A stretch of DNA of 64,000 nt from an uncultured delta proteobacterium (lineage in GTDB: Bacteria > Desulfobacterota > Binatia > Binatales > Binataceae): assembly GCA_963711565.1 (NCBI GenBank), contig CAVQEQ010000001.1, forward strand, positions 480,001-544,000. Direction: 5' to 3'. The translations under genes were made by a program, and so were the position numbers. The notes beneath the pieces were generated by a model. The model did not search any database. It saw only the letters and a program-made list of their open reading frames with translations, and had not been told where the DNA came from. How positions within the stretch are numbered: position 1 is the first letter of the stretch; every line of letters begins with the position of its first letter. This document shows, piece by piece, positions 13,815-43,966 of the stretch.

Positions 13815-14564
13815 ATGGGAGATAAATCGTCAATTGAGTGGACGGATGCGACGTGGAACCCCGTCACCGGCTGCACGAAGGTCAGCCCCGGCTGCAAGCA
13901 CTGCTACGCGGAGAGACTGGCCCGTAGACTTCACGCCATGGGAAATCCCCGATACCGCAACAGCTTCCAGACAACACTTCACTCCGATCAGATAGATCTC
14001 CCTTTAAAGTGGCGCCAACCGCGCAGAATCTTCGTGAACAGCATGAGCGACTTATTTCACGATGACGTCCCTGACGCTTTCATCGAGCGCGTTTTTGCAA
14101 CGATGGGGAGAGCTTCGTGGCATGTGTTTCAAATCCTCACCAAGAGGGCAGAACGACTCGCCGAAATGGCGACGCAGCTTCAGTGGCCGGGGAATGTGTG
14201 GCAGGGAGTCTCTACGGAGAGTCAGGAGTACGTCTACCGGATTCAGCTACTGAGGCAAGTGCCGGCCGCTGTAAGATTCGTATCAGTGGAGCCTATGCTA
14301 GGGCGGATTAAACGGCTACCGCTTCGCGGAATTCATTGGGTGATCGTGGGTGGCGAAAGTGGCCCCAACTTCCGTCGAATCGATCCCGATTGGGTGCGAG
14401 AAATTCGCGACCAGTGCTTGGCAGCTAAGGTTCCATTTTTCTTCAAGCAGTGGGGTGGCTTCAGACCAAAGTCCGGAGGTCGCAAGCTAGAAGGCAGAAC
14501 TTGGGACGAGAGTCCTCCAGCGCCTCCCCTCGGAGCCGCTGAAATTCGCGAGCACCGTGTGTGA
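13815..14564 (+). CDS. DUF5131 (phage Gp37/Gp68-like, three-Cys motif) protein
   Basis: [49 protein letters not shown] and FFFKQWGG. Confidence 0.93.
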
Positions 14565-15678
14565 CCGCTCCTCGCGATACAACTTGGCCGATCGAAGCGC
14601 ACACCCTGACCAAGCACAGGATTCTGGAGCGATATCTTCAGGGCTGGTTGCCCGTGATGGCCAAGACAAACGGCCGGATCCATTTTCTCGATGGATTCGC
14701 TGGACCGGGGCGCTATAGCGGCGGTGAAATCGGTTCGCCGCTGATTGCGTTACAATCGTTACTGAGGCACCCGCACTTCGCGAGGGCAAACAACCAGCGC
14801 GAGGTCGTATTTTCCTTCTTCGAGCAAGATAAGAGACGGGCAGACGCTCTACGGGAAGAGCTGAAGCGAGTTACTCTTCCGAAATGGGTTAGCTGCACTG
14901 TGCTCGACGGCGAGTTTGCCCCGCTGCTGTCCTCCATTCTGGATAAATTCGAGGCGGAAGGAAATCAGCTCGCTCCCACATTTGCGTTCGTCGACCCCTT
15001 TGGCTTCGCCGGGGTGCCGATGGACCTGATAGCTCGGATCGCGAGAAATGCAAAGTGTGAATGCTTCATCAATTTCATGTACGAGGAAGTAAACCGATTT
15101 CTGAGCGTTCCAGCCGTTGCCGAACACTATGACGCGCTCTTCGGAACACCAAGATGGCGTGAAATTGTTGATGAAACCGACCCCGACAGACGCAGGGACA
15201 GAATCGCGGATCTCTACCGAAAGCAACTAGAAACGGTCGCGGGCTTCAAATACGTCCGCGAGTTCCAAATGGTGAACCGGGGAAATAGAACGAAGTACTT
15301 TCTCTACTTCGCCACAAAAAGCGAGAAGGACTAAGCTTAATGAAAGCAGCTATGTGGAAGGCCGACCCGGGAGGTGGAGCGATCTTCTCCGACCGAACGA
15401 ACGAAGGCCAAATCGTACTATTCGGACCGTCGCCTAATCTCGCGTTACTCAGATCGATGTTGACACAGCGGTTCCGAGGACAAGGTCTGACGGACATAAG
15501 CGAGATTGAAAGATACGTTCTCATTGATACGCCTTTCTCAGAAACCATGCATTTGAAGAAAGCGACCTTGGGGCCAATGGAAAAAAATGAGCCCAAGTTG
15601 ATTGAAGTTCATCGTCCGATGGGCAAAACCAATCGGGCCGGCAGTTATCCACCGGGTACAAAGATAAAATTCATTTGA
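14561..15678 (+). CDS. tcmP: Three-Cys-motif partner protein TcmP (methyltransferase-like), frameshifted near 15329
   Basis: [20 protein letters not shown] and FAFVDPFG; GTGA overlap with DUF5131. Adding one G in AAGGACTA gives [15 protein letters not shown] and joins ORF 15340..15678. Confidence 0.85.
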
Positions 15679-16539: not shown

Positions 16540-17973
16540 TTACGAATGCGGATAAGCGTCGCTGCCCATCTCGAGCGCATCCAGCCCCGACCATTCCACT
16601 TCCACCAGCACGCGGTTGCCGATCGTGCGCTCGACGATCTTGAAGAACAGCATCGATAATCCGAATACCACGACCAGGTTCACCGTTACACCGATCAACT
16701 GCGCGAAAAATTGCCCGACATCGCCGTAGAGCAAGCCGGTCACCGGTCCCGCTACACCGTTCCATCCGTCGCCGTAGGTGCCGTCGGCGAGCAGGCCGAG
16801 CGCGAGCGCGCCCCAGATGCCGCATACACCATGCACCGCGATCGCGCCGACCGGATCGTCGATTCGATAGCGCCGTTCGAGTTCCAGCACCGCCCACACG
16901 ACCAGCAGTCCCGCGATCGTGCCGATCAAAACCGCCGCCGCCGGTGTCACGAATGCGCACGGCGCCGTGATTGCGACGAGCCCGCCCAGCAAGCCGTTAC
17001 ACGCCATCGCGATATCGGGTTTGTTGTAACGATGCCACAGGTAGAGCAGCGACGAGAGCGCGCCGGCCGCCGAGGAAAGCATCGTGTTCACACCGATGAT
17101 CGCGATGCGCGGATCCGATGCGGCCAGGGTCGAGCCGCAGTTGAAGCCGAACCATCCGAACGCGAGAATCAACGTTCCGCTCACGGCCATCGGCAGGTTG
17201 TGTCCGGGCAACGCTCCGATTGCGCCGTCGCGGCGGAACTTTCCGATGCGCGGACCCACCATGTAGGCGCCGGCCAGCGCTGTCACTCCGCCCGTCATGT
17301 GCACGACCGACGACCCGGCGAAATCGAGATGGCCGTGCCCGAGTCCCAAGTTCACCCCGAGCTGCGAGAGCCACCCGCCGCCCCAGACCCAATTACCGTA
17401 CAGCGGATACAGGAACATCGACATGAACAGTCCGTAGACGAAGAACGCTTTGAACTTCCATCGCTCCGCCATCGCGCCGGTCGGAATGGTCGCCGCCGTA
17501 TCCATGAAGACCAGCGAGAACAGAAACATGCCGAGGCTGGCGGGATCGCGGCTGACGTTGAGCAGCGCGAACTTACTGAACCCCAGGATGCCGTACGAGT
17601 GCGAGCCGATCGTGATCGACAGCTCGTGATGGTCGATCGCACCCATCCCGAGCGAGGGCCAGTGCGCGATTCCGCCCATCATGAAGCCGTAGCCGCAGAG
17701 CCAGAAACCGATGATGCCGATCGGGTAGATGATCAGGTTCATCGCCATGGTGTTGACCGCGTTCTTCGAGCGCGTGAACCCCGTCTCGACCATCGCGAAC
17801 CCGAGCTGCATGAACATCACGAGGAAACCCGCAATCAGCAGCCACGCGAGGTTCAGCGAATTGTCCAGCGGCGGCGATGACGCGGCGGTCTGCGCGCGCG
17901 CGACCGACGAAAACAGCATCAGCGCGGCGACAGTCGCGGCGGCCAATCCGAGTTGCGATCGTCTCGGCATCAT
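16540..17973 (-). CDS. amt: Ammonium transporter Amt #1
   Basis: MQLGFAMVE, GAMAER, DFAGSSVVH, FGWFGFN and DDPVGAIAVHG (twin His intact). The ATG at 17973 overlaps the kinase TGA. Confidence 0.95.
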   Translation of the reverse strand: MMPRRSQLGLAAATVAALMLFSSVARAQTAASSPPLDNSLNLAWLLIAGFLVMFMQLGFAMVETGFTRSKNAVNTMAMNLIIYPIGIIGFWLCGYGFMMGGIAHWPSLGMGAIDHHELSITIGSHSYGILGFSKFALLNVSRDPASLGMFLFSLVFMDTAATIPTGAMAERWKFKAFFVYGLFMSMFLYPLYGNWVWGGGWLSQLGVNLGLGHGHLDFAGSSVVHMTGGVTALAGAYMVGPRIGKFRRDGAIGALPGHNLPMAVSGTLILAFGWFGFNCGSTLAASDPRIAIIGVNTMLSSAAGALSSLLYLWHRYNKPDIAMACNGLLGGLVAITAPCAFVTPAAAVLIGTIAGLLVVWAVLELERRYRIDDPVGAIAVHGVCGIWGALALGLLADGTYGDGWNGVAGPVTGLLYGDVGQFFAQLIGVTVNLVVVFGLSMLFFKIVERTIGNRVLVEVEWSGLDALEMGSDAYPHS

Positions 17974-18983
17974 CTCGTCTGCCCTCGATATGACCGGCGC
18001 GGAGGAGCCTTGGACGCCGGGTAACGGTTTGCGAGCCAAATCAAAAGTAAAAAGGCCCCGATCAGCGATGTGAAGAACGCCACGTACCCAAGCCTGCGGC
18101 GCATGTTCTGCATCGCGAGGCTGCGTGGATGCAGCCGCTCCGCGCGGTTCTGCGGCACGACGCGCGACGGATCGCGCAGGTCCTCGAGCATCTCTGCCGC
18201 GCTCGCATAGCGGTCGCGCGGATTGCGCTCGATCGCGTGCAGCACGATCTCTTCGAGATGCGGATCGATATCCGGTTTGAACGCGGACGGCGGCTGCGGA
18301 TCTTCCGCGGTCTTCGAGCGCATCACGTTGTAAACGTTGGGGCCCGAGTACGGCAGGTGGTTGGTCAGCATTTCGTAGAGAATCGTGCCCAGCGAATAGA
18401 TGTCGGTGCGGACGTCGCCGCGCCGGCCGCTGACCTGCTCGGGCGCCATGTAGTCGGGCGTGCCGATAGTCGACGACAACCCGGACCAGGTCAGCCGTCG
18501 CGCCGACTCGTCGAGTGCGATTCCGAAATCCATGACCTTGGTTTTGCCATCAGCCGTCACCAGGATATTTTCCGGCTTCAAATCCCGATGCACCACGCCT
18601 TCGCCGTGCATGTACACAAGCGTCTCCGCCAACTGCCGTGTAAGATCGAGTGCCTTTTCCAGCGGCAGCCCGGGTTCTCGCATCATCGAGCGCAGCGACT
18701 CGCCCTCGATGTACTCCATCGCGATGTACATGCGGCTTTTTTTCCTCGGCGTGAGGACCTTGACGATGCCGGGATGGTCGAGGCGGCGCCCGACTTCTTC
18801 TTCGCGCTGAAAGCGGCCGTAGAAGACCACGTCGCTCTCGAACTGCATGTAGGGAACTTTGATCGCGACCGTCTCGCCGCTGATTTGATCGACGGCTTTG
18901 AAGATCGACGCCATCCCGCTGCGCGCGATCACCTCGATCAACTTGTACTGATCGAGGTTTTCACCAACGCTGACCTCGCGCAT
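17970..18983 (-). CDS. Hanks-type Ser/Thr protein kinase with a C-terminal TM anchor
   Basis: ARSGMA Gly loop, VAIK, HRDLKPEN, DFG, GTPDYMAPE and DIYSLG; TM segment LGYVAFFTSLIGAFLLLIWLA. Confidence 0.95.
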   Translation of the reverse strand: MREVSVGENLDQYKLIEVIARSGMASIFKAVDQISGETVAIKVPYMQFESDVVFYGRFQREEEVGRRLDHPGIVKVLTPRKKSRMYIAMEYIEGESLRSMMREPGLPLEKALDLTRQLAETLVYMHGEGVVHRDLKPENILVTADGKTKVMDFGIALDESARRLTWSGLSSTIGTPDYMAPEQVSGRRGDVRTDIYSLGTILYEMLTNHLPYSGPNVYNVMRSKTAEDPQPPSAFKPDIDPHLEEIVLHAIERNPRDRYASAAEMLEDLRDPSRVVPQNRAERLHPRSLAMQNMRRRLGYVAFFTSLIGAFLLLIWLANRYPASKAPPRRSYRGQTR

Positions 18984-19699
18984 GTCTGGACCGTCTCGGG
19001 AAAAGGGTCAGCGGACGTTAACACCCGACCCGCCGCCAATGGAAGGGCTGGGCGACAGGCGCGATTCTGAAGGATCGAATACGGTTGGAGAGCGCAATTC
19101 ATACCATCCGTGGTCGTTTAGGGACAGCTCCGCTACCAAGGTAGTCTCGTTCCGTCAGAAATCGTCTTTTGCCAGAAGTCGGCGCCGCCCGATTTCTGTG
19201 GAACCTTTGCAAGTATGCGCGATTCTGAAAGTTGTTCATAACCGTGAGGTGCGGCACGCCATGTCCAGCGGCGGCAGGCTGAATAGTTCATCTCCTCAAA
19301 TCGATGACTCGAATTATGTTGCACAGCAAGCGGAGCATCTTCGGCATGACGGCAAAAAAATGGCGGTCGTGTCTCTGAATCTAGCGCGACGGCAAAATCT
19401 GGGCATTTTTAACTTTTGAGAGCAAACGGGTTGGGCGGATCCTGGCGCAGAACCCTGGTAGCGGATGGAGTTGAGGGTGGCATTCTCCTTGCTCGACTTA
19501 GGGTGTGTACAAACTTTCCGCAACATGAAGAGAAAACTTCCGCATCGGTCGTCGCGGAGTTCGATTTTGGATAGAATGCACGCAAAGTTGATGATGGCAA
19601 GCGATTGACTCGCGCATTCGGAGTCAGAACAAGGCGTAGTGAATATCGCGATTCAATAGCCAAGACCGCAGAAGGGGCGAGCGCAGGGACACCATTCTG

Positions 19700-20653
19700 A
19701 TGGAAAACGATGTGAAGTCGCCCTATACGATTCAGTTCTGTGATGCCTTCGATTGGATGGCAGCGGGACTGCCTGACTCTATTCAGGCAATCGTCACGGA
19801 CCCGCCCTATGGACTAAAAGAATATTCTGAGGTGGAGAAACAAAAGCTCCGCGCGGGCCGCGGAGGAGTATGGCGCATCCCACCCTCGTTCGACGGCTGC
19901 AAGCGCAGCCCGGTCCCGAGATTTACAGTATTAGACGAAGTTGAACGAAACGCCTTGAGAACTTTCTTTGCGCGATTCGCTAAGGCTGCGATGCGCCTTT
20001 TGGTTCCAGGCGGACACATTTTCATCGCCGCCAACCCACTGTTGTCGCACTTGGTGTACATGCCCTTGATGGAGGCGGGTTTTGAGAAGCGCGGCGAAAT
20101 TATCCGGCTCGTTCAAACTCTTCGGGGCGGTGATCGACCGAAAAACGCGCACGCAGAATTTGCCAACGTCAGTGTCATGCCGCGATCTGGCTGGGAGCCG
20201 TGGGGTTTGTTTAGAAAACCGTGCGAGGGTCGAGTGCAGGACAATCTTCGGAAATGGAGAACTGGCGGGCTCCGCAGAATATCCCCGGACCAACCATTTA
20301 GCGATGTAGTTCTGTCATCGCCCACTCGGGCCGATGAAAGGGCCGTAGCACCTCATCCTTCGTTGAAGCCGCAGCGCTTCATGCGGCAGATCGTGCGTGC
20401 ATCGCTTCCGCTCGGCTCTGGAGTAGTACTTGATCCATTCATGGGTGCTGGTTCGACAATCGCGGCGGCCATCGCGGTCGGTTATGAAAGTGTCGGTCTC
20501 GAAATTGATTCACGCTATTTCAAGATCGCAGAACGCGCGATTCCAAGACTTGCGAAAATGGACCTCACAATTGGACTTCAGCAGTCTTTCCCGGCTATGA
20601 ATCGAGCGAATGGCGGTGCGCAACACAGCCGATCGGGGCAACTTCAATCCTGA
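19700..20653 (+). CDS. Beta-class amino (m6A/m4C) DNA methyltransferase
   Basis: IVTDPPYG precedes HPSLKP..LDPFMGAGST (beta motif order). Confidence 0.92.
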   Translation: MENDVKSPYTIQFCDAFDWMAAGLPDSIQAIVTDPPYGLKEYSEVEKQKLRAGRGGVWRIPPSFDGCKRSPVPRFTVLDEVERNALRTFFARFAKAAMRLLVPGGHIFIAANPLLSHLVYMPLMEAGFEKRGEIIRLVQTLRGGDRPKNAHAEFANVSVMPRSGWEPWGLFRKPCEGRVQDNLRKWRTGGLRRISPDQPFSDVVLSSPTRADERAVAPHPSLKPQRFMRQIVRASLPLGSGVVLDPFMGAGSTIAAAIAVGYESVGLEIDSRYFKIAERAIPRLAKMDLTIGLQQSFPAMNRANGGAQHSRSGQLQS

Positions 20654-21209
20654 GGTAGTGCTCCCCTACGAATTGCGCTTCGAAGATTTTGCCCTGGCGA
20701 TGCAGGACGTCTACGATTTTTTCTATGACGTGAACGAACTATTGATCTCCAAAGCTCTAATCCGTTTCGATGACATGCTCAGGCCGGCGAACATGTCCGG
20801 GATGCTCTCGGATATGCTAACCGCCAGTTTAGCAAAACACTCGCGGACTTTGACCCAAAACGCCTACTTCAACGGACATCCAGATCTGGTCCTGAACGGT
20901 GTCTACCCGCACAATTCTGTAAAAGCCGGGACAGAAGGAATCGAAATAAAGACTACTCGCAAAAAGGGTGGCGCGGTCGATACTCACGGAGCCCGAGATC
21001 AATGGATGTGCAGCTTCGTCTATGTCGTGGATGGCGAAACCGAGCCGACCCACAATCGCGCACCCATGACGTTCACGGAAGTATATCTCGGAAAGGTCAT
21101 GGAAGCGGATTTTCGGGACAATCCTCTAGGTCAACTCGGCACCCGCACGTCGACACTCCATAAACTCGGCATTGCGAAGCTGCGAGAGAACTGGGTGTAC
21201 CGTGTGTAG
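20610..21209 (+). CDS. Putative type II restriction endonuclease (PD-(D/E)xK)
   Basis: HPDL...GIEIKTT catalytic-like motif; overlaps the MTase 3' end by 44 nt. Confidence 0.65.
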   Translation: MAVRNTADRGNFNPEVVLPYELRFEDFALAMQDVYDFFYDVNELLISKALIRFDDMLRPANMSGMLSDMLTASLAKHSRTLTQNAYFNGHPDLVLNGVYPHNSVKAGTEGIEIKTTRKKGGAVDTHGARDQWMCSFVYVVDGETEPTHNRAPMTFTEVYLGKVMEADFRDNPLGQLGTRTSTLHKLGIAKLRENWVYRV

Positions 21210-21286
21210 AGAGGAAAGAGGTCTCCGGTTCCCCGCTGACTATCTACTCCCGACTGAACTGAGAGACGATTGATCCGCCAGAAGAG

Positions 21287-22120
21287 TCAAAGCTGTCGCC
21301 GGAACAGTCCGCGCAAGCGCTCTCGCCATCCACCGGTGGCCACCGTATGCCCCGTGTGCGACGTCATTCTGAACACCGCGCAGGTCAGGTTGTCGTAGGT
21401 GCCGCGCTTGTTGGCGGTATCGATCAGCTTGCGGCACGCCGTCTCGGCGTCGACGCCGCGCGAGAGCGATTCGAGTTCCTTGTCCTCGAGGACGTTGTAC
21501 ATTCCGTCGCTGCACAGTATCAGCCGGTCGCGCTCGAACAGCGGCAGCGTGATCCGATCGATCGACGCTATCAGCTCGCGTCCAAGGCTGCGCAGCAGCA
21601 TCCCGCGCTCAGGATGAGTCTTGGCGCGCGCGGCGCTCATCATCCCCATCCTGACCTGGCCGGCGACCATCGTGTGATCCTTGGTGACCACCGAGATCTG
21701 GCTGTTGCGAATCAAATGCAGCCGGCAATCTCCGATATGGACCGCTGACAGAATCCCCTTCTCCACCGCGACCGCGGTCATCGTCGTCGCCATCCGGGAC
21801 AGTTCCGGCACCGTCAGCGCCTTGTCGTGAATCCCGATGTTGGCCCGGGTGATTGCTCGGTAGAGCCGCTTGGCCGCGCCCCAGGCCACAGGGCTCTCGC
21901 GGTATGCCTCAAGGAGAATGTCGATCGCCATGCGGCTGGCGATCTCGCCGCCTTCGTAGCCGCCGACCCCGTCGGCAACCGCGAACACCACGCAGTCGGG
22001 ATTCTCGATAAAATGCCCGCAACAGTCTTCGTTGTCGGGCCGCGTCGTCCCAACATCGGACAGCAGCGCCAGCTCGAAAGCCTGCTCCGTGGAAGGGGGA
22101 GCGGAGGGCGGCGAATCCAT
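21287..22120 (-). CDS. PP2C/PPM Ser/Thr phosphatase (PrpC/Stp-like), soluble
   Basis: SDVG..RPDNED, AVADGVGG, HIGDCR, DH, LCSDG and DNLT. Confidence 0.95.
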   Translation of the reverse strand: MDSPPSAPPSTEQAFELALLSDVGTTRPDNEDCCGHFIENPDCVVFAVADGVGGYEGGEIASRMAIDILLEAYRESPVAWGAAKRLYRAITRANIGIHDKALTVPELSRMATTMTAVAVEKGILSAVHIGDCRLHLIRNSQISVVTKDHTMVAGQVRMGMMSAARAKTHPERGMLLRSLGRELIASIDRITLPLFERDRLILCSDGMYNVLEDKELESLSRGVDAETACRKLIDTANKRGTYDNLTCAVFRMTSHTGHTVATGGWRERLRGLFRRQL

Positions 22121-22177
22121 TTGCAGTGCAGTACCCAGCTAATTTGGCCCTGAATTGAAAGTTGTTTCAACGGCCAA

Positions 22178-22209
22178 GGGGCGAGCCGCGATCGCTCGCG
22201 GCTCGCCCC
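22178..22209. repeat. Perfect 14-bp-stem palindrome (REP-like or mRNA hairpin)
   Basis: GGGGCGAGCCGCGA-TCGC-TCGCGGCTCGCCCC between the APC and PP2C genes, with a second palindrome TTGAAA-GTTG-TTTCAA at 22155-22170. Confidence 0.7.
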
Positions 22210-22242
22210 AGGGATTTATTCGCCAAACCAGCTTGCTCGGGT

Positions 22243-23898
22243 TCAGGCCGGCTTGGTTACGAGAATCGTCTCTTTGCCCTTCTTCTTCGAATTGCGTACG
22301 AAGTAAATCGCACCGTAAACTCCCCAAATCACTGAGATCCCGACCGCCATCAGCGGTTCCTTCACGCTGCCGAGTCCCTCGATCGGTCCGATGATGTAGA
22401 ACGCCATGCAGCCGAAGTTCGCGATCGCACCGAAGACCGGTATCACCATGTGCTTCAGGCCGTTGAACTCGTGATGCTCGCGGAAGGCTACGATGGCAAC
22501 GATATTGGTCAGTCCGTACAGCGCGAAAGTTCCGAAGTTTGAGACCAGAGTGACCAAGGCCAGCCCGTTCGGAAGCGCCGACAGCGATGCGTTGTTGTTC
22601 ATCCCGATCGCGTACCACAGGTTATGCGGCAGCGTCGCGATGGTCTTATCATCCGGAGCCGCGGAGCCGGCGAAGAAGTACAGCGCGGCATACGCGCCGA
22701 GGACTGCTGAAATAGTGGCGAGCGTCCAGATCGCACGATGGGGAGTGAGGTTCTCGCCATGAAGCAGGCCGAAGTGCTCGGGCACTTCCGCGTCGCGGCC
22801 CATCGCGTAGGTCACGCGCGCCCCGGTGTTGATGCATGACAGCGTCGTTCCGATCAGCGCGAGGAACACCGTCAGGGCTTCCAACAGCATGAAAGCCTCA
22901 CCGTGCCCGCCCAGGAGTGCATTACCCAAAATCACCAACATGTCGCCGATCGGTGCGGCCGATCCTTTCGCATCCGCAAGGCTGTAAGCACTGCTCAGGA
23001 AGTAGTTCGCCGCGAAGTATTCGATCAGGTAGCAAAACAGGCACTGGATGGTGAGGGACAGGAGCACCGCGCGGGGGATATCCTTTTTGGGGTTGAGCGC
23101 CTCTTCCCCAAGCGAGGTGACTGATTCGAAGCCAACGAGCAGCAGGATTGCTATCGTTGCCTGAAGCATCATCCAGTTGAAGCTGTGCGGAAGTATTACT
23201 GACCACCCGGACGGATGAGCGGGCGTATCGCCGGTCAAAGTGTAGTGCAACACCTTCGAGGTGCCGTCCAGCGCCATACCGGTCGAACCGTCGGGATGTC
23301 CCAAGCGGTACGCGATTGCCAATGCCGCAAAGAACAGGAGCGCGACGATTTGGATCGCGTTGATCGCGATGTTGACGTTGGTCGATCCGTTCACGCCCTG
23401 GAACGCGATCCACGCGACCGCGAATGAGAAAATGACCGCTATTAGCGCCATGAAAACCGGGCCGGGCACGCCCGCATTCATCATCGAAGGCGCGACGCTG
23501 CCCACGATGTAGCCGATCATGACTCCCATCGTCGCGACCATCACGCCCGGATAGACCCAGTAGTAAAGATGCGACGCCCACCCGATTGTGAATTTCGCGA
23601 TGCGTGCAAAGCGAAATGCTTTCGTCTTGCCGAGGAACGCCTGCTCGGCAAAGAGATACGAGCTGCCCGCACCTGGATAGAGTTTGGCCAGTTCCGAGTA
23701 CGAGATCGCGGTCGCGTATGCCAGCAACAGGGCTGCGAAGATTCCTGCCCACATCGCAAGGCCGGACGGGTATGCGTACCCAGCCTGCACGACAAACGTG
23801 ATCCACAGGAACGCTCCTGGGGCGATGAGCGCCATCGCGTTGACCGTGACTCCGGTCAAGCCAAGGGTCGGCACCATCTTTTTCTGTTCTTCAGCCAT
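22243..23898 (-). CDS. APC-superfamily amino acid/polyamine permease
   Basis: IAPGAF in TM1, ELAKLYPGAGSSY, VGFES..GEEALNPKKDIPRA and ARVTYAMGRD; AAGGAGG RBS. Confidence 0.92.
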   Translation of the reverse strand: MAEEQKKMVPTLGLTGVTVNAMALIAPGAFLWITFVVQAGYAYPSGLAMWAGIFAALLLAYATAISYSELAKLYPGAGSSYLFAEQAFLGKTKAFRFARIAKFTIGWASHLYYWVYPGVMVATMGVMIGYIVGSVAPSMMNAGVPGPVFMALIAVIFSFAVAWIAFQGVNGSTNVNIAINAIQIVALLFFAALAIAYRLGHPDGSTGMALDGTSKVLHYTLTGDTPAHPSGWSVILPHSFNWMMLQATIAILLLVGFESVTSLGEEALNPKKDIPRAVLLSLTIQCLFCYLIEYFAANYFLSSAYSLADAKGSAAPIGDMLVILGNALLGGHGEAFMLLEALTVFLALIGTTLSCINTGARVTYAMGRDAEVPEHFGLLHGENLTPHRAIWTLATISAVLGAYAALYFFAGSAAPDDKTIATLPHNLWYAIGMNNNASLSALPNGLALVTLVSNFGTFALYGLTNIVAIVAFREHHEFNGLKHMVIPVFGAIANFGCMAFYIIGPIEGLGSVKEPLMAVGISVIWGVYGAIYFVRNSKKKGKETILVTKPA

Positions 23899-23985
23899 CT
23901 TGCCTCCTTACAATTCACGGCGGAGGTGGTTGTCCGCCGCGCGCACGCGTTGACTCCCGTTACGGGCGGGAGCATGGAGGCTCAA

Positions 23986-24001
23986 AGCATGAAAAGTGCC
24001 A
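23986..24001 (-). promoter_or_regulatory. Sigma54 -24/-12 promoter for the APC permease
   Basis: The minus strand reads TGGCACTTTTCATGCT (GG-N10-GC), about 90 nt upstream of the ATG. Confidence 0.65.
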
Positions 24002-24115
24002 TTTCAAAAACGAATGTATCCCGATGAAAAATGCAATGCGCCTGCCCAAACAACAGGCAGCCGCCTGCCGTGCAGTCACCACCGGCCCCTTACGGTTCTT
24101 CATGGACCGCTTATT

Positions 24116-24571
24116 TCAGTTGCCCAAAGACTCGAACTGCCAGTTCGCCAGTCGATACACCAATCCGAGCGATTTCAGTTTCATCCCGACGGACCCCGCC
24201 GATGCGCTGGCGGCTTCGGCACGGACGACTGTCCCCGCCACGATTGGTTCTCCGGAAATCGGATCGAGCACTCGCAGCACGATCTCATCAGTGTCGGGCA
24301 GTGTCGCGAACAACCGTGAGATCGCCGCGTCCACATCCTCGAGGCATTGCTGCACGAATCTCTGTGCTGCCCGCTCCGGCGGCAGACCTTTATCCCAGGG
24401 ATGAATCTCGCGCGCCTGCCATTCGACTTCGAGCCGATTGCGCATGCTCTTGAGCGAGAGGCCGTCATTGCGAACGCCCGCCCGCCGATTCACTTCGAGC
24501 GCGCCGAGTACCTTGCGCCTGAGCCGCTGTTGCGCAAGGTAGTTTGCGAATTTTTTCAATGCGGTTATCAC
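24116..24571 (-). CDS. Hypothetical soluble protein inside the amt-APC cluster
   Basis: Co-oriented ORF filling the gap, with the distinctive REIHPWD segment. Start uncertain (GTG 24571 chosen). Confidence 0.6.
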   Translation of the reverse strand: MITALKKFANYLAQQRLRRKVLGALEVNRRAGVRNDGLSLKSMRNRLEVEWQAREIHPWDKGLPPERAAQRFVQQCLEDVDAAISRLFATLPDTDEIVLRVLDPISGEPIVAGTVVRAEAASASAGSVGMKLKSLGLVYRLANWQFESLGN

Positions 24572-24730
24572 AACTGGATTCCATAGATGCGAGCGTTCCA
24601 GCAAGTTGCTCGGACCGGCCTCGAGTCGGTGGCTGATTCCGACTGAGGCCGGTCCGTTTGTTACGGGCACCAGGATGACTCCCGTAAAGTCTCCGTGCCA
24701 CATTCCAGTGGGGCGGGCCGCCGTGCCCGC

Positions 24731-26287
24731 CTAGGCCACCTTCTTTGCTTTCGAAGGCCGCGCCAACGTGCGCCTGCCGATTGGTACGTCGTCGATGCTC
24801 TTGGGGCAGCCGTCGTCGCCGTTAACCACATATTCCGGGTACGCTGGGAAACCGTGCTCGTGCAGATCGAGTCCTTCGATCTCGCCCTCGGTCGGAATGC
24901 GCAGTCGGAAGCCCCACTTCACCGCGTACATCAGCGCCATCGAGGCCACGAACGTCGCGATAGTGATCGAGAAGCTGCCGATCGCCTGCGCCTTCAGCAC
25001 GCCGAAGCCGCCGCCGTAGAACAGCCCGGTGACAGGACTGCTGGGATCTCCTCCCATCGCGGTGGCCGCACCGTACTTGCCGGCGGCGAAGAGCCCCAGC
25101 GAGAGCGTGCCCCAGATTCCCGCGACCATATGCACCGGGACGGCGCCGATCGGATCGTCGATGCGCAGGTATTCAAGCAGGTCGATGCCCCAGACCACCA
25201 CGATGCCGGCGCCGATTCCGAGTAGGAACGCGCCTTCGGGATCGACCCAGTAACAGGGACATGTAATCGCGACCAATCCGGCCAGGAAGCCGTTAACCGT
25301 CAGCGCGAGATCCCACTTCTGACCTTTGATGTAGGAGTAGAAAAGCGAAGTCAGTCCCGCCGAGCATGCCGCGATCGTCGTGTTGAACGAGACGCGGCCG
25401 ATACCTTGCGCGTCCATCGCGGACAGCGTGCTGCCCGGGTTGAATCCGTACCATCCGAACCACAGGATCAGTCCGCCCGTCGCGCCGATGATCAAGTCGT
25501 GCGGTTTCATCGGCTGTCCGCCGTCGCGTTTGAAGACGCGGCCGAGCCGAGGTCCTAGGGCGATTGCTCCCGCCAATGAAATAGTTCCGCCGATCGTGTG
25601 GACCACCGTCGATCCGGCAAAGTCATGAAAGTTGACCGGGTTGAGATTTGCGAGCCATCCGTCCGGACCCCATGCCCAGTGTCCGATGATTGGGTAGATG
25701 AAGCCCGTCACGCCGACGCTGTACAACAGGTCGCCGATAAAATCGCAGCGCCCGATCATCGCGCCCGAGGTAACTGTCGAGCAGGTGTCCGCGAATGCAT
25801 ATTGGAAAACCCAGTACGCGAGCAGCGGCACTCCGGTGGTGCCGTAGGTGGGAGCGAGCCCATGCAGCATGAAGCCGGTCGTGCCGATCCACGGCGTCCC
25901 CGGGCAGAACATGAAGGCGAAGCCCCACAGCCAGAAGGTCACGCCGCAGATGCAGGTGTCGGCGATTCCTTCGACCAGGATGTTCACCGTTTCGCGCGAT
26001 CGGGCGAAGCCCGACTCGAGCATGACGAAGCCGACCTGCATGCAGAAAACCAGGTACGCGGCGACCAGCGTCCAGACCGTGTTGATCGCGTTGACTTGCG
26101 GCGGCGGCAGCGCCGGCGCCGTGTCAGCGTACGCCGACGCGGGCAAATACCATTTCGTGATCAACAAGAGTACCAGCCCGAGTCCGATCATCTTGCTGGC
26201 CATCAAGACACCCGCGTTGCGCCGGACCATCGGGTCTCGCCACGCTTCGCGAATTCTCTCCCACAATCCCGTTGCTCCTGAGTACAT
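24731..26287 (-). CDS. amt: Ammonium transporter Amt #2 with extended termini
   Basis: MQVGFVMLE, DFAGSTVVH, WFGWYGFN, DDPIGAVPVH and GLDLHEHG; GGAGGGAG RBS before ATG 26287. Confidence 0.95.
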   Translation of the reverse strand: MYSGATGLWERIREAWRDPMVRRNAGVLMASKMIGLGLVLLLITKWYLPASAYADTAPALPPPQVNAINTVWTLVAAYLVFCMQVGFVMLESGFARSRETVNILVEGIADTCICGVTFWLWGFAFMFCPGTPWIGTTGFMLHGLAPTYGTTGVPLLAYWVFQYAFADTCSTVTSGAMIGRCDFIGDLLYSVGVTGFIYPIIGHWAWGPDGWLANLNPVNFHDFAGSTVVHTIGGTISLAGAIALGPRLGRVFKRDGGQPMKPHDLIIGATGGLILWFGWYGFNPGSTLSAMDAQGIGRVSFNTTIAACSAGLTSLFYSYIKGQKWDLALTVNGFLAGLVAITCPCYWVDPEGAFLLGIGAGIVVVWGIDLLEYLRIDDPIGAVPVHMVAGIWGTLSLGLFAAGKYGAATAMGGDPSSPVTGLFYGGGFGVLKAQAIGSFSITIATFVASMALMYAVKWGFRLRIPTEGEIEGLDLHEHGFPAYPEYVVNGDDGCPKSIDDVPIGRRTLARPSKAKKVA

Positions 26288-26375
26288 CGATCGTCTCCCT
26301 CCAAGGTTGATTTTGGCGTTGGCCTGCGCGCCTCCGCGCGGCGCGACGGACGCGTGATCGCGCCGCATCGCTTAG

Positions 26376-26391
26376 AGCAAGACGTATGCCT
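26376..26391 (-). promoter_or_regulatory. Sigma54 -24/-12 promoter for amt #2
   Basis: The minus strand reads AGGCATACGTCTTGCT (GG-N10-GC with TTGC), about 90 nt upstream of the ATG. Confidence 0.65.
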
Positions 26392-26410
26392 CGGATCGAA
26401 TTTTCCCGAG

Positions 26411-26474
26411 TCCATCCAACGATGAATCAAGTTGTAGACCTATCGATGGAGTGAGCGATCCACCTTAGGTTTCA
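26411..26474. promoter_or_regulatory. Three 16-bp imperfect palindromic boxes at 24-bp period
   Basis: TCCATC-caac-GATGAA (26411), TAGACC-tatc-GATGGA (26435) and TCCACC-ttag-GTTTCA (26459). Confidence 0.5.
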
Positions 26475-26575
26475 GATTTTCGCTTAACTGGGAGTTATCG
26501 CCGCCGACGCGAAAAATTAGGCGAGAATGACACTGCCGCATCTTGCGGCAATGCCTGTCATACGTGCATCACTTC

Positions 26576-26698
26576 TTCCCCTCTCCCAAAATTTGAGAGG
26601 ATGAAGGTGAGGGTATTTATTCAGCGCGCGTGCTTTGTTCCCCTCTCCTGAAGGGAGAGGGGTTAGGGGTGAGGTTTTGCGCGCGATTCAAGATTCTG
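26576..26698. repeat. Composite of two family B units plus linker
   Basis: Shares the units and the linkers CAGCGCGC..CTTTGTTCCCCTCT and GCGCGCGATTCAAGATTCTG with 37532-37743. Confidence 0.85.
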
Positions 26699-26741
26699 CC
26701 TCCGCAATGAATCAGGATCGACGCGATGCAAAGTTCTCGTG

Positions 26742-27374
26742 TCAGCGATTGCGATCGAGTACCGCGACCATTCCCGTCTTGATCGCGTAATGCGTCAGCT
26801 CGAGACGATCGCGCACGCCAAGCTTTTGAAAAATATTGTTGAGATGAGTTTTGACCGTGCTCTCGGTTATCGAGAGCCGCTCGGCGACTTCGATATTCCT
26901 CAGGCCCGAAGTGACGTAGCGGACAATTTCGGATTCCCGCGGTGTCAGTTCCTTGCCACTCGAGCTTTCCTGTCGCGCGAATTCGGTCTGCACTGTTGGC
27001 GGCATCCACACCATCCCATCCGCGACCGAACGTACCGCCATCATCAACGTCTCGATCGCAAATCGCTTCTGCACGACGCCCTTGGCGCCGAGCCGCAACG
27101 CCTTGACTCCATTTTCGGCGCTCTCGCTCGCCGTCAGCACGATCACATTTGTCAGGCGGCTGAGTTGCGGGATGTCTTCCATCATCCACCGGTCCATCTG
27201 CAGATCGAGCAGAAGGACGTCGCTGTCGGTGTCCGAAACGATCGGCCTTACGTCATCCGCTGATTCTATTTCAGCGACGACCTCGGTGTCCGACTGAACC
27301 AGCAGCAGCGACTTCAGTCCCTGCCGGAACAGTGCGTGATCGTCGGCGATGATAAGACGCAACGGCGTTCGCAT
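26742..27374 (-). CDS. NarL/LuxR-family response regulator
   Basis: IADDH, LLDLQM (phospho-Asp) and LTPRE...TVKTHLNNIFQKLGV HTH. Confidence 0.95.
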   Translation of the reverse strand: MRTPLRLIIADDHALFRQGLKSLLLVQSDTEVVAEIESADDVRPIVSDTDSDVLLLDLQMDRWMMEDIPQLSRLTNVIVLTASESAENGVKALRLGAKGVVQKRFAIETLMMAVRSVADGMVWMPPTVQTEFARQESSSGKELTPRESEIVRYVTSGLRNIEVAERLSITESTVKTHLNNIFQKLGVRDRLELTHYAIKTGMVAVLDRNR

Positions 27375-27376
27375 GC

Positions 27377-28453
27377 CTAGCTGTTCGGAAGTTCGATTTG
27401 CAGCCGGGTGCTGCCATCGCTGTGGATGCTCATGTGACCTTCCAACTCCGCGACCCTCGAGGCTATAGCCCATGGCCGCGACGACGAATCCGCCAGGCCC
27501 ACACCATCGTCCTCGATAGTTATCGAAACCTTGTCGTCGGCCTCGCGCACATCAATCCTCACCAGGTTGGCCAATCCGTGGCTCCTCGAATTGCGCAGAC
27601 CTTCGAGCATGATCTGCAGTATGTGCTCGCCGAGAAGACTGTGGCCACTGAACGCGGCGCGAACTTCAAAGCTTGGATCGGAAATCCGCGCGGCGCGTTC
27701 CACGCTAGGTCCCTGGTCGATCCCAGCGAGCGAGCGCAGATAGATTCGCACCGCGTCATACTCGCGCGCGACACCGGTTTGCAGGTCCGTGATTTCCAGC
27801 AGCGCGTCCTGCGGGCGATTCCGGTTCAGCAGGGCGCGACAACTCTCGAGGCGCAAGTTAACTCCGGCCAGCGCCTGCACGTAACCGTCGTGCAAAAACC
27901 GGGCGATCGATTGTCGCTCCGCACGCGTTTCGAGCTCGCGCACCTCCGCCTCAAACAAGGCGCGTTGCTGCGAAAAGAACCCAATCAGATATCCGGCGAT
28001 CGCAAGGTACACCGCCCGCATATCGTAAACGCTGGTAATCCCCCTGGTCAGGACTATCACCAGCAGATACAACGCCACGCTGCAAAACGTCACGGTTACT
28101 ATCGGGCGCGACTTCGCGCGGCTGCCGGTGGCGACAATCGCGAATACAAAAAAGACGTATGACGCGCTCGTCTGTCCTTCCGTTATGAATGCGACCGCGG
28201 TCGCGAAGAACAGGTCGAAGCAGGTTGAAAGCAACTGGAGATTTACGTCCGCGATCCCGCGGCTGAGCGCCAGGTACATTCCAACGCTGTACGCCAGATG
28301 GCATAGCAGTGTCGTCAACGCATAGGCGTTCAGGTGGAAGAGTCCACCGGCGGTGCTGGGATCGACGTACAGCGACAGCATCGCGATGAGCGAAAGAGCA
28401 ATCCGGGCTCGCGCGATACTAAGATCCAAATCCCGGAACTCAGGCAATTTCAT
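27377..28453 (-). CDS. Membrane sensor histidine kinase (HisKA_3, NarX/UhpB type)
   Basis: Multi-TM N-terminus, IARFLHDGYVQ, EGLRNSRSHG and IEDDGVG; ends 2 nt before the regulator ATG. Confidence 0.88.
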   Translation of the reverse strand: MKLPEFRDLDLSIARARIALSLIAMLSLYVDPSTAGGLFHLNAYALTTLLCHLAYSVGMYLALSRGIADVNLQLLSTCFDLFFATAVAFITEGQTSASYVFFVFAIVATGSRAKSRPIVTVTFCSVALYLLVIVLTRGITSVYDMRAVYLAIAGYLIGFFSQQRALFEAEVRELETRAERQSIARFLHDGYVQALAGVNLRLESCRALLNRNRPQDALLEITDLQTGVAREYDAVRIYLRSLAGIDQGPSVERAARISDPSFEVRAAFSGHSLLGEHILQIMLEGLRNSRSHGLANLVRIDVREADDKVSITIEDDGVGLADSSSRPWAIASRVAELEGHMSIHSDGSTRLQIELPNS

Positions 28454-28540: not shown

Positions 28541-28778
28541 TGTCATGGTTACGAAGCAAGCGCACGCGACTCTGTCATCCAACCACGCAAGCATCCGCAC
28601 GATTCTGTCATCTCGACGCGCGAGGATGCGCGCAATTCTGTCCTCCCGACGACGCGAGCATCCGCGCAATTCTGTCATTCCGACGACGGGAGCGAAGCGA
28701 CGGGAGGCATGGCTTCTGGCCTCCGGACAGCTTCGCGCACGCGAAGCCGGTACCGGTTCCGAAATCGCGCAGCGCTCC
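28541..28778. repeat. Degenerate tandem array of four 32-34-bp TGTC(A)T units ending in a family D element
   Basis: Units such as TGTCATCCAACCACGCAAGCATCCGCACGATTC and TGTCATCTCGACGCGCGAGGATGCGCGCAATTC; the tail matches 9770-9871. Confidence 0.75.
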
Positions 28779-43165: not shown

Positions 43166-43966
43166 ATGAGCCGCCCCGGCGCAGAATTGAAGTTCGCGGA
43201 GATCGAAGCACGGCTCGGCGGTCGTCTGGGTGTCGCCGCCCTTGATACTGGCAGCGGCAAACAATTGTCCTATCGCAGGGACGAACGATTCGCGATGTGC
43301 TCAACTTTCAAATCGCTACTGGTAGCTAATGTACTGAGTCATGTTGAGAAAGGATGGCTGTCTCTGGATCAGCGCGTTCCGTATTCTATCGCCGATCTGA
43401 TCGAGCATTCTCCGTTCATGCGGGATCACCTTGCCGAAGGAAGTGTGCCGGTTGCCGATCTCTGTGGCGCAACCATAGAAATCAGCGACAATACGGCGGC
43501 GAACCTCCTGCTGAGTCTGATTGGCGGACCTCCGGGCCTAACCGATTATCTGCGTAGGTTGGGCGATCCTATAACCCGGCTGGACCGCACCGAATTGAGC
43601 CTCAATAGCAACATTCGGGGAGATGATCGCGATACGACAACACCCGATGCGATGATCAGGACCATGAGCAAGATCCTTGTCGGCGATGTCTTATCGCCGG
43701 GTGCGCGTACCCGGCTCGTAAATTGGATGAAGAATTGCCGGACGGGATTTAGTCGCCTTCGCGCCGGGCTGCCACAGGATTGGATCGTAGGCGATAAAAC
43801 CGGAACCGGCAGCAACGGGGCCGCCAACGATACCGCGATCCTTTGGCCTCCCGGGCGTGCACCAATCATGGTCGCGGCCTATTTGAGCGAATCCGCCAAT
43901 CCACCCGAAGATCTCAACGCAGCACACGCGAAAATCGGCAGCATCGTCGCTGCCGTTTTCGCGTGA
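43166..43966 (+). CDS. bla: Class A serine beta-lactamase without a signal peptide
   Basis: FAMCSTFK, SDN, LDRTE.SLN (Glu166 equivalent), DTTTP and DKTG. Confidence 0.9.
   Translation: MSRPGAELKFAEIEARLGGRLGVAALDTGSGKQLSYRRDERFAMCSTFKSLLVANVLSHVEKGWLSLDQRVPYSIADLIEHSPFMRDHLAEGSVPVADLCGATIEISDNTAANLLLSLIGGPPGLTDYLRRLGDPITRLDRTELSLNSNIRGDDRDTTTPDAMIRTMSKILVGDVLSPGARTRLVNWMKNCRTGFSRLRAGLPQDWIVGDKTGTGSNGAANDTAILWPPGRAPIMVAAYLSESANPPEDLNAAHAKIGSIVAAVFA

Follow-up and report, generated by a model that had tools for sequence, protein, structure and literature searches.

The 64-kb window analysed here (the whole stretch C1:480001-544000) belongs to a genome that is 94.9% complete and whose closest relatives are Candidatus Binatus/Binataceae. 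It carries a run of genes encoding two ammonium transporters (Amt1 and Amt2), a Hanks-type Ser/Thr kinase, a PP2C-type phosphatase, a permease of the APC superfamily, a protein of no recognized family, and a histidine kinase (HK) and response regulator (RR) (Table 1). An earlier sequence-only reading of this DNA had listed these genes, and the map of open reading frames (ORFs) together with family scans found each of them in its place on the minus strand. The run exists as that reading described it, but not as one operon, because the permease and the kinase each have a conserved upstream motif of their own and a 2.2-kb low-GC insert lies between them. By gene arrangement, it is made up of three units, HK-RR-amt2-unknown protein, APC-PP2C, and kinase-amt1. 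Judged from neighbourhoods in other genomes, the conserved core consists of the APC permease, the PP2C, a Hanks kinase that is anchored in the membrane and lacks a sensor domain, and an Amt of one particular clade; on the same grounds, HK, RR, amt2, and the unknown protein are a lineage-specific addition to this core.

Table 1. Features of the kinase-Amt-permease locus (positions refer to the window)
Feature	Position	Strand	Basis
amt1, ammonium transporter of the kinase-coupled clade	16540..17973	-	Pfam, TIGR00836, residue table, tree
Hanks Ser/Thr kinase, 337 aa	17970..18983	-	Family scans, motifs, model
Extended -10-like motif, candidate internal promoter of kinase-amt1	19015..19023	-	Conservation
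Low-GC (53.6%) insertion, outside the module	19050..21295	+	Absent from close relatives; PADLOC
Type II DNA methyltransferase inside the insertion	19700-20653	+	PADLOC MTase_II 7e-121
Methyltransferase partner ORF inside the insertion	20610-21209	+	No Pfam, NCBIfam, or PADLOC match
PP2C-type phosphatase	21287..22120	-	Family scans; metal-binding Asp motifs intact
APC-superfamily permease (LeuT fold), uncharacterised family	22243..23898	-	Profiles, fold, alignment
Sigma-54 (-24/-12)-type site	23986..24001	-	Conserved pattern
17-bp palindrome, candidate enhancer-binding-protein site	24043..24059	.	Conserved with the sigma-54 site
Soluble protein of no recognized family; 151 aa, its length in relatives (open frame reaches 24703)	24116..24571	-	No family match
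amt2, ordinary-type Amt, accessory	24731..26287	-	Residue table, tree
NarL/LuxR-type response regulator, accessory, co-found with amt2	26742..27377	-	Family scans, neighbourhoods
HisKA_3 membrane histidine kinase, accessory, co-found with amt2	27377..28453	-	Family scans, neighbourhoods

The kinase possesses the catalytic Lys, HRD, DFG, and APE motifs and the bilobed fold, with K42, D134, and D152 intact and an RRLT activation loop, and its glycine loop is atypical (ARSGM). A single C-terminal membrane helix (about residues 300-318) is followed by 19 residues, and no sensor domain is present; in the structural model (pLDDT 84.8) a long C-terminal helix takes in the membrane segment, and a membrane helix occupies the C-terminal end in 65 of 69 aligned kinases. 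With only those 19 residues past the helix and 286.7 bits against the 450 of the equivalog, the protein is not of the PknB/Stk1 PASTA type, and in the ESM Atlas it matched generic kinase clusters. Its stop codon overlaps the amt1 start codon (ATGA). A complex prediction of the kinase (1-328) with Amt1 (30-475) scored 0.00 in two uncontrolled runs and carries no weight either way, and no paper was found on a possible link to the kinase of the Pseudomonas nitrate operon (PA1782).

Both Amt proteins of the window pass TIGR00836 (Amt1 exceeds the cut-offs of PF00909/TIGR00836, with 367.5 and 380.6 bits) and fail the AmtB equivalog NF007947 (190.8 and 144.1 bits, cut-off 657). Amt residues are numbered here as in the Escherichia coli protein, mapped via the 9CS5 alignment. 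The twin His motif that the sequence-only reading had seen in both pores is indeed kept, as are the Phe gate, W148, D160, and S219. Amt1 is distinguished by a signal-like N-terminus, an extracellular loop insertion, and a short tail, and its closest PDB entries are 6EU6 (1e-66) and 8QJ3 (4e-59). Q104 is replaced by Ser in the window's Amt1 and occurs in none of 27 Amt1 proteins, whereas Gln or Glu stands there in all 46 ordinary Amts; its plant equivalent, Q131, is a conserved vestibule residue (PMC13745463). The Amt1 pore is otherwise preserved (H168 and F215 in 26/27 each, other pore residues in 27/27). Ser or Thr occupies position 470 in every one of the 27, compared with 3 of 20 other loop-clade representatives (the loop clade is defined below), and Glu is found there in 23 of 35 other Amts. 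In the window's Amt1 this residue is S470 (counted from the ATG at 17970), six residues before the end of the protein.

In a tree of 76 aligned sequences (IQ-TREE, LG+F+G4), the kinase-coupled Amt1 proteins form their own clade (SH-aLRT 99.9/UFBoot 100), in agreement with the suggestion that kinase-linked Amts stand apart. Together with a sister group and a divergent acidobacterial Amt, here called AmtD, they have a common extracellular loop insertion, and these 35 of the 76 sequences, the loop clade, group at SH-aLRT 88.7/UFBoot 93. AmtD has lost F107, F215, and S219 in 17/17 sequences and H168 in 9/17, and has kept W148, D160, W212, and H318 in 17/17. The loss of both gate Phe residues strongly impairs transport in AtAMT1;1 (PMC13745463), and AmtD probably cannot conduct. 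The retention of this probably non-conducting protein in just those genomes that retain the kinase suggests a role as sensor or scaffold, and the loss of its gate favours a sensor over simple gating. No fusion of the kinase family to an Amt was found among 150 representatives; three Amt-Amt-kinase fusions in that set were rejected as evidence, being eukaryotic, outside the loop clade, and carrying a kinase without the family signature. Among the tandem Amt-Amt proteins noted (P0142, P0172, P0174, P0140, P0141, and P0163), the fusion partner is a Ser/Thr kinase in three, which are from EukProt, and a nucleotide cyclase in the others.

The permease has the APC fold, with GkApcT and AdiC as best folds and GkApcT as best Foldseek match (TM score 0.66, 18% identity). 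The break in its first transmembrane helix (TM1) reads Ala-Pro-Gly in 38 of 38 permeases and Gly-Thr-Gly in GkApcT. A profile search of E. coli K-12 ranked PlaP (53.8 bits, whole-protein score) and PuuP (45.6) highest, at about 25% identity, and FrlA (40.6) third; the proline at the TM1 break is found in PlaP and PuuP, not in FrlA. These resemblances point to an amine such as putrescine as the likely import substrate, an assignment that is a lead and not a result. Position 537, just past the last helix, on the cytoplasmic side and in a basic stretch, is conserved: of 86 permeases, 84 carry Ser there and one carries Thr. The family is large (all 7999 scored candidates lay at E<=1e-30), and a tblastn search of plasmids with the permease gave 94 records, none covering 80%. 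A role in K+ transport was weighed, as a KimA-like gene is inserted at the same spot in L045 and L047 and kdp genes lie beside the kinase in L149, and was rejected: KimA ranked only 35 in the fold search, and the neighbours are mostly nitrogen genes. A stand-alone permease paralogue of this genome (G000:C3:140028-141683) is 85% identical, has a sigma-54-type site, and lies without kinase or PP2C; many relatives carry similar copies.

The association of kinase, PP2C, APC, and Amt genes, which the sequence-only reading had reported from this window, is conserved across phyla in GTDB and metagenome neighbourhoods. A GTDB scan with the permease was evaluated on the best 79 of at least 600 loci, with phylum groups assigned from record names; the permease-locus counts below refer to these 79. 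Among 38 acidobacterial loci, PP2C occurred in 34, the kinase in 32, a BBP2 porin in 32, glutamine synthetase (GS) in 21, and AmtD in 8. The 37 Binatia loci contained PP2C in 24, the kinase in 20 (split in two more), amt1 in 19, gltB in 13, and PII in 3. PP2C, kinase, and amt1 were present together in both myxococcotal loci, and one of the two verrucomicrobiotal loci encodes a PP2C-kinase fusion. Urea/allophanate genes and NifA are further nitrogen-related neighbours. A metagenome scan with the kinase alignment, chosen to remove the permease bias, gave 79 loci, 17 of this kinase family and 62 generic. Of the 17 family loci, 9 have a separate PP2C and one has a PP2C-kinase fusion; APC is present in 7, AmtD in 5, and PII in 4. 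An Amt, the APC family, PII, GS, or a BBP2 porin occurred in 11 of them versus none of the 62 generic Hanks-kinase loci, and five of the six family loci without a nitrogen-module gene are contigs under 3.1 kb. The gene association is more than chance.

Its distribution is patchy: at the thresholds used, the kinase was found in 4/151 genomes of the Anaeromyxobacter phylum and 3/121 of the acidobacterial phylum. Among 41 genomes of one acidobacterial class, drawn around an Acidobacteriaceae genome that is itself one of the seven positives and including kin that are not independent, kinase, permease, and AmtD occur in the same seven and in none of the other 34, with some Amt in 30 of the 41; the three genes lie within about 6 kb in five of the seven. 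Two weaker AmtD matches (42-44%) in this draw are sister-group Amts with intact pores. Within the genus, 34 of 37 genomes have the kinase, and the three without it are only 64-82% complete. The amt1 gene is present in 30/37, directly behind the kinase in 30/30, as also in 4/4 Anaeromyxobacter-type loci seen, and in the cultured Anaeromyxobacter oryzae Red232 the genes for PP2C, kinase, Amt1, and APC share one locus (L124). The permease is found in 30/37 genus genomes, and all seven without it keep the kinase. One of the genus genomes (G007; one contig, 97% complete) shows the order nitroreductase-kinase-amt1-hydratase-gltB, and neither a family APC nor a cognate PP2C was found there. As separate observations, a small DMT/UPF0060-like membrane protein recurs near the kinase family or AmtD (L115, L140-L142, L145, L305); PP2C, a KimA-like APC, the kinase, and an atypical PII lie together in L157, a possible further link to potassium besides the kdp genes of L149; and L306 (4317-10192) unites NifA, APC, PP2C, and an atypical PII with a convergent, more distant kinase.

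Conserved upstream motifs support the division into units. A sigma-54-type site lies 103 nt 5' of the permease start, and rpoN is present in the genome; the site was found in 21/36 Binataceae APC loci by a strict and 32/36 by a relaxed pattern, against a background of 0.008 per 400 nt. In 23 of the 36 loci a 17-bp palindrome lies 58 nt upstream of it, and this palindrome is absent from the stand-alone permease copies checked. The combination of the two occurs just once in this genome, against an expectation of 0.17. The palindrome presumably resembles NtrC boxes; it was not found 5' of glnA, glnB, amt3, or gltB, which gives no tie to a genome-wide NtrC regulon, and TIGR01818 had no match over its cut-off. 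Most Binataceae kinase loci carry an extended -10-like motif 32 nt 5' of the kinase start (background 0.003 per 90 nt). We infer promoter functions for both the sigma-54-type site and the -10-like motif from their conservation; sigma-70 and terminator scans showed no excess over shuffles. The insert between PP2C and kinase (GC 53.6% versus 60-62%) is absent from close relatives. The sequence-only reading had called it a methyltransferase and restriction enzyme; the methyltransferase is borne out by PADLOC, and the restriction enzyme is not, the ORF in question having no family match. All insertions seen in this gap (the window, L043, L045, L046, L047) lie upstream of the kinase's conserved motif. 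They comprise, besides that of the window, a KimA-like APC gene in L045 and L047 (with further genes in L047) and stretches of 330-365 nt in L043 and L046, of which that in L046 matches the kinase-proximal end of the window's insert.

Two traits by which the sequence-only reading had defined the system, two Amts and the lack of GlnK, are not borne out as hallmarks. The amt2 gene occurs in only 6 of the 20 kinase-bearing Binatia loci, and in many relatives without the amt2 unit a nitroreductase gene directly joins the permease. Orthologues of amt2 are paired directly with PII in L109, L164, and L294; the distance between the two genes is 17 and 89 bp in a pair of acidobacterial loci, and in G015 they are neighbours. 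The unknown protein travels with amt2/PII, not with the kinase (neighbours in L109, L164, and L304); its ORF gave no family match and only unnamed ESM Atlas clusters, with recognition below the 2300 mark. Two adjacent 17-bp palindromes lie at about 26520-26560 of the window, ~250-270 nt 5' of amt2 and without a sigma-54 site, and are possible sites for the NarL-type regulator. In L061 (9998-14109), a second permease copy takes the place of amt2 behind the amt2 leader (HK-RR-APC-unknown-APC), an arrangement that suggests the two transporters may be interchangeable under amt2 leader control.

The window indeed contains no PII/GlnK gene: a genome-wide PF00543 search gave three matches, none within it. 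PII lies at C1:285.6 kb and the three amt genes at 496, 505, and 918 kb, and because none of these adjoins PII, the missing glnK linkage is genome-wide rather than cluster-specific. GlnB (Ala49/Tyr51), ~210 kb from the cluster, and GlnD are available in trans, and PII lies inside the kinase cluster in six Binataceae loci. A PII-like ORF without a T-loop directly precedes glnB (G000:C1:285971-286273). Ser or Thr occupies position 49 in all six of the cluster-borne PII proteins, whereas other Binatia PII seen have Ala49. A search of 61 genomes with the Ser/Thr49 DNA pattern gave 19 matches, spread over 18 genomes, of which 8 matches are not PII; true Ser/Thr49 PII occurs in 11/37 genus genomes, each time beside a sister-group Amt. 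The pattern was not found in 24 kinase-bearing genomes, this one included, and such a PII is therefore not a general target of the kinase.

Taken together, the module is real and conserved, and its mechanism is inferred from gene content and residues. Some kind of functional partnership between the kinase/PP2C pair and the membrane proteins encoded beside it is, in our view, probable. The particular form that we prefer, tentatively and at somewhat less than an even chance, has the Amt as input of the sensor-less kinase and an output on the permease and, here, on the Amt1 tail, reversed by PP2C. The module would then serve nitrogen scavenging: the membrane-anchored kinase would take its input from a dedicated Amt and, with PP2C working against it, would determine how far the membrane transporters of the module are phosphorylated. 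Kinase and Amt1, co-made from the internal promoter, would meet in the membrane, where the Amt, as a transceptor, would signal the presence of ammonium or of a small amine; this would explain why a gate-less Amt copy is kept. Under nitrogen limitation, the sigma-54 promoter would raise permease and phosphatase and so shift the balance; the likeliest phosphorylation sites would be permease Ser537 and, in this lineage, Amt1 Ser470, and the permease would import an amine such as putrescine. The sequence-only reading had left two options, namely that the kinase and phosphatase switch the Amts and/or the permease or that an Amt serves as the sensor; the second has the most support, from the gate-less relatives, and a site of the plant Thr460 type found none, as the presumed equivalent position is Leu in Amt1 and His in Amt2. 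More doubtful is a wider version in which a dedicated Amt clade would be a non-covalent receptor for a Hanks kinase, the Amt-kinase-PP2C circuit would sense ammonium or amines and phosphorylate the amine permease and the Amt tail as a bacterial counterpart of the yeast Mep2-Npr1-Gap1 logic, Acidobacteria would have transport-dead receptors, and the kinase would perhaps act on PII-Ser49 in some species.

Several observations weigh against the Amt as input with output on the transporters. The Ser470 site is not universal (AmtD has Ala or Gly there, with Ser/Thr in 0/17), and Ser537 is also kept in stand-alone APC paralogues without kinase neighbours and may be structural. AmtD, without the recruitment residues, may bind no ammonium at all and act as a scaffold; its branch is long, and its grouping falls below UFBoot 95. 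Members of the loop clade also occur outside the module: four Binatia genomes (G047, G052, G053, and G056) encode a sister-group Amt and lack a family kinase. Two verrucomicrobiotal genomes with the PP2C-kinase fusion, which lies near urea/allophanate genes and a porin-like gene, have no loop-clade Amt. In L149, a family kinase stands directly 5' of kdpD-like/kdpE/kdpA/kdpB genes. An intact kinase, directly 5' of an enoyl-CoA hydratase gene, persists in G016 (98% complete, fragmented) and G023 (89%), where no amt1, family APC, or cognate PP2C was found, which leaves room for soluble targets; a Ser49 GlnK accompanies a sister-group Amt in G016, whereas no Amt was found in G023 at E<=1e-100. Finally, the class and genus genomes are not independent samples.

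These points bear differently on the alternatives. If Amt1 were a target only, with the kinase replacing GlnK and gating the transporter through Ser470 in the plant or yeast manner, the invariant Ser/Thr470 with its Ser/Thr interchange, the frequent Glu at that position elsewhere, which phospho-Ser could mimic, the intact pore beside an altered tail, and the translational coupling of kinase and amt1 would all be accounted for, and tail phosphorylation does control AtAMT1;1 and Mep2 (PMC13745463, PMC4852598). This is nonetheless unlikely, as it gives no reason why this very kinase family should also be linked to the gate-less AmtD, in which that Ser is missing; the Amt1 site also differs from the presumed plant Thr460 position, and GlnB and GlnD are present in trans. 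It is quite unlikely that the targets of the pair are soluble proteins of nitrogen metabolism (GS, the glutamate synthase GOGAT, or, as in cyanobacteria, a Ser/Thr49 GlnK) and that the transporters are co-regulated neighbours: against the invariant Ser/Thr49 of cluster PII in Binataceae, the kinase of G016 with its Ser49 GlnK, the frequent placing of GS or gltB 3' of the kinase, and the cyanobacterial precedent, in which PphA dephosphorylates PII-Ser49 and the kinase was reported as unidentified (PMC4285133), stand the pairing of Ser/Thr49 PII with its own Amt in each of the 11 genus genomes, the 24 kinase-bearing genomes in which the pattern was not found, the Arg, Gln, or Asn at position 49 of acidobacterial PII beside the kinase, and Ser49 PII in short loci without a family kinase (L231, L245, L255).

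The APC protein could instead be an amine transceptor and the kinase's main partner, with the Amts as passengers or secondary targets. APC-PP2C-kinase is the commonest order, the kinase outnumbers AmtD in acidobacterial APC loci by 32 to 8 of 38, APC exceeds Amt in kinase-centred loci (7/17 versus 5), and in L096 a PP2C-kinase fusion lies 3' of APC in a genome without a loop-clade Amt. Yet all seven genus genomes lacking the family APC retain the kinase, nine stand-alone APC copies have neither kinase nor PP2C in ~6-10 kb of downstream sequence, and the kinase gene, which overlaps amt1 rather than APC, is preceded by a conserved motif of its own; we regard this account as very unlikely. That the genes merely share regulation in a nitrogen-starvation island, with no direct functional link, would suit the variable partners (Amt1, AmtD, APC, a urea ABC system, kdp) and their piecemeal loss, but is highly improbable given the gene overlap, the exact co-occurrence with a gate-less Amt, the PP2C-kinase fusions, and the clade-specific residues.

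Elsewhere in the window, a DUF5131 and TcmP-like pair (13815-15678, +; PADLOC PDC-M30/M41; GC 54%) lies right after the enoyl-CoA hydratase gene, in the place held by gltB in relatives; the genome's own gltB is at C1:399-401 kb, and the TcmP-like gene is seemingly split into ORFs of 257 and 112 aa. A 34-bp tandem repeat (3.7 copies, 28571-28693) has ~30 blastn matches in the genome, and a REP-like hairpin element (26600-26680) ~32. A class A beta-lactamase-like ORF (PF13354, 2e-45; 43166-43966, +) follows a Rieske oxygenase gene, and a second APC of 680 aa lies at 59008-61050. Rfam gave no matches across the 64-kb window. One soil metatranscriptome contained 6% of the words; its contigs gave scattered short pieces, three of them on the permease, which are uninformative on expression or operon structure.

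In bacteria, PII proteins that plug the transporter are generally taken to control ammonium uptake. Like GlnK-AmtB, the module would place an Amt under nitrogen control in a genome with GlnB and GlnD, and amt2 orthologues are PII-paired elsewhere; it differs in that a kinase takes the place of glnK as the partner of amt1, whose product falls in another Amt clade and has an altered tail. The best PDB matches of Amt1 are known sensors in which an Amt provides the signalling input: Ks-Amt5 and Sd-Amt1, the protein of 8QJ3/8QPF. These sensors carry a fused histidine kinase or cyclase, whereas here a separate Hanks Ser/Thr kinase and PP2C are found and neither is fused to Amt1. Ks-Amt5, an Amt fused to a histidine kinase that acts as signalling input and transports poorly (PMC5764959; PDB 6EU6), keeps all pore features, whereas AmtD has lost them. 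The permease's best E. coli matches, the putrescine:H+ symporters PlaP and PuuP, have the TM1 proline in common with it, at about 25% identity and with no kinase linkage in the E. coli regions examined.

Phosphorylation of bacterial transporters has few precedents: a 2023 review names LacS as the sole one regulated by direct phosphorylation (PMC10710835), and KdpB followed in 2024 (PMC11018627). KdpD, acting as serine kinase on KdpB, likewise switches a transporter by Ser phosphorylation from a linked kinase; there, however, an atypical kinase domain of a histidine kinase acts on a K+ pump, without a Hanks kinase, PP2C, or Amt (PMC11018627). The cyanobacterial PII Ser49/PphA system links a phosphatase and Ser49 PII to nitrogen control (PMC4285133). 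A Ser/Thr49 GlnK lies in some of the clusters described here, although no Ser49 PII was found in this genome by the pattern searched. PphA is itself a PP2C-type enzyme. Fungi have the kinase-permease pair Npr1-Gap1. As in Npr1-Mep2 and plant AMT1, a Ser/Thr kinase is tied here to an Amt and an APC permease, with a candidate Ser/Thr in the Amt tail (PMC4852598, PMC13745463); in contrast to them, the module is bacterial and operon-encoded, and has a membrane-anchored kinase with a cognate phosphatase, and its candidate tail site is not at the plant AMT1 Thr460 position. No description of the module was found in the open literature searched (listings and abstract starts). If the proposed mechanism is true, a eukaryote-like layer would be added to bacterial nitrogen control in soil Binatota, Acidobacteria, and Myxococcota, and the module would provide a simple system for testing signalling from an Amt transceptor to a kinase that is a separate protein. 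We regard it as apparently new in its combination of known kinds, the Amt sensors on the one hand and eukaryotic phospho-control of Amt proteins on the other.

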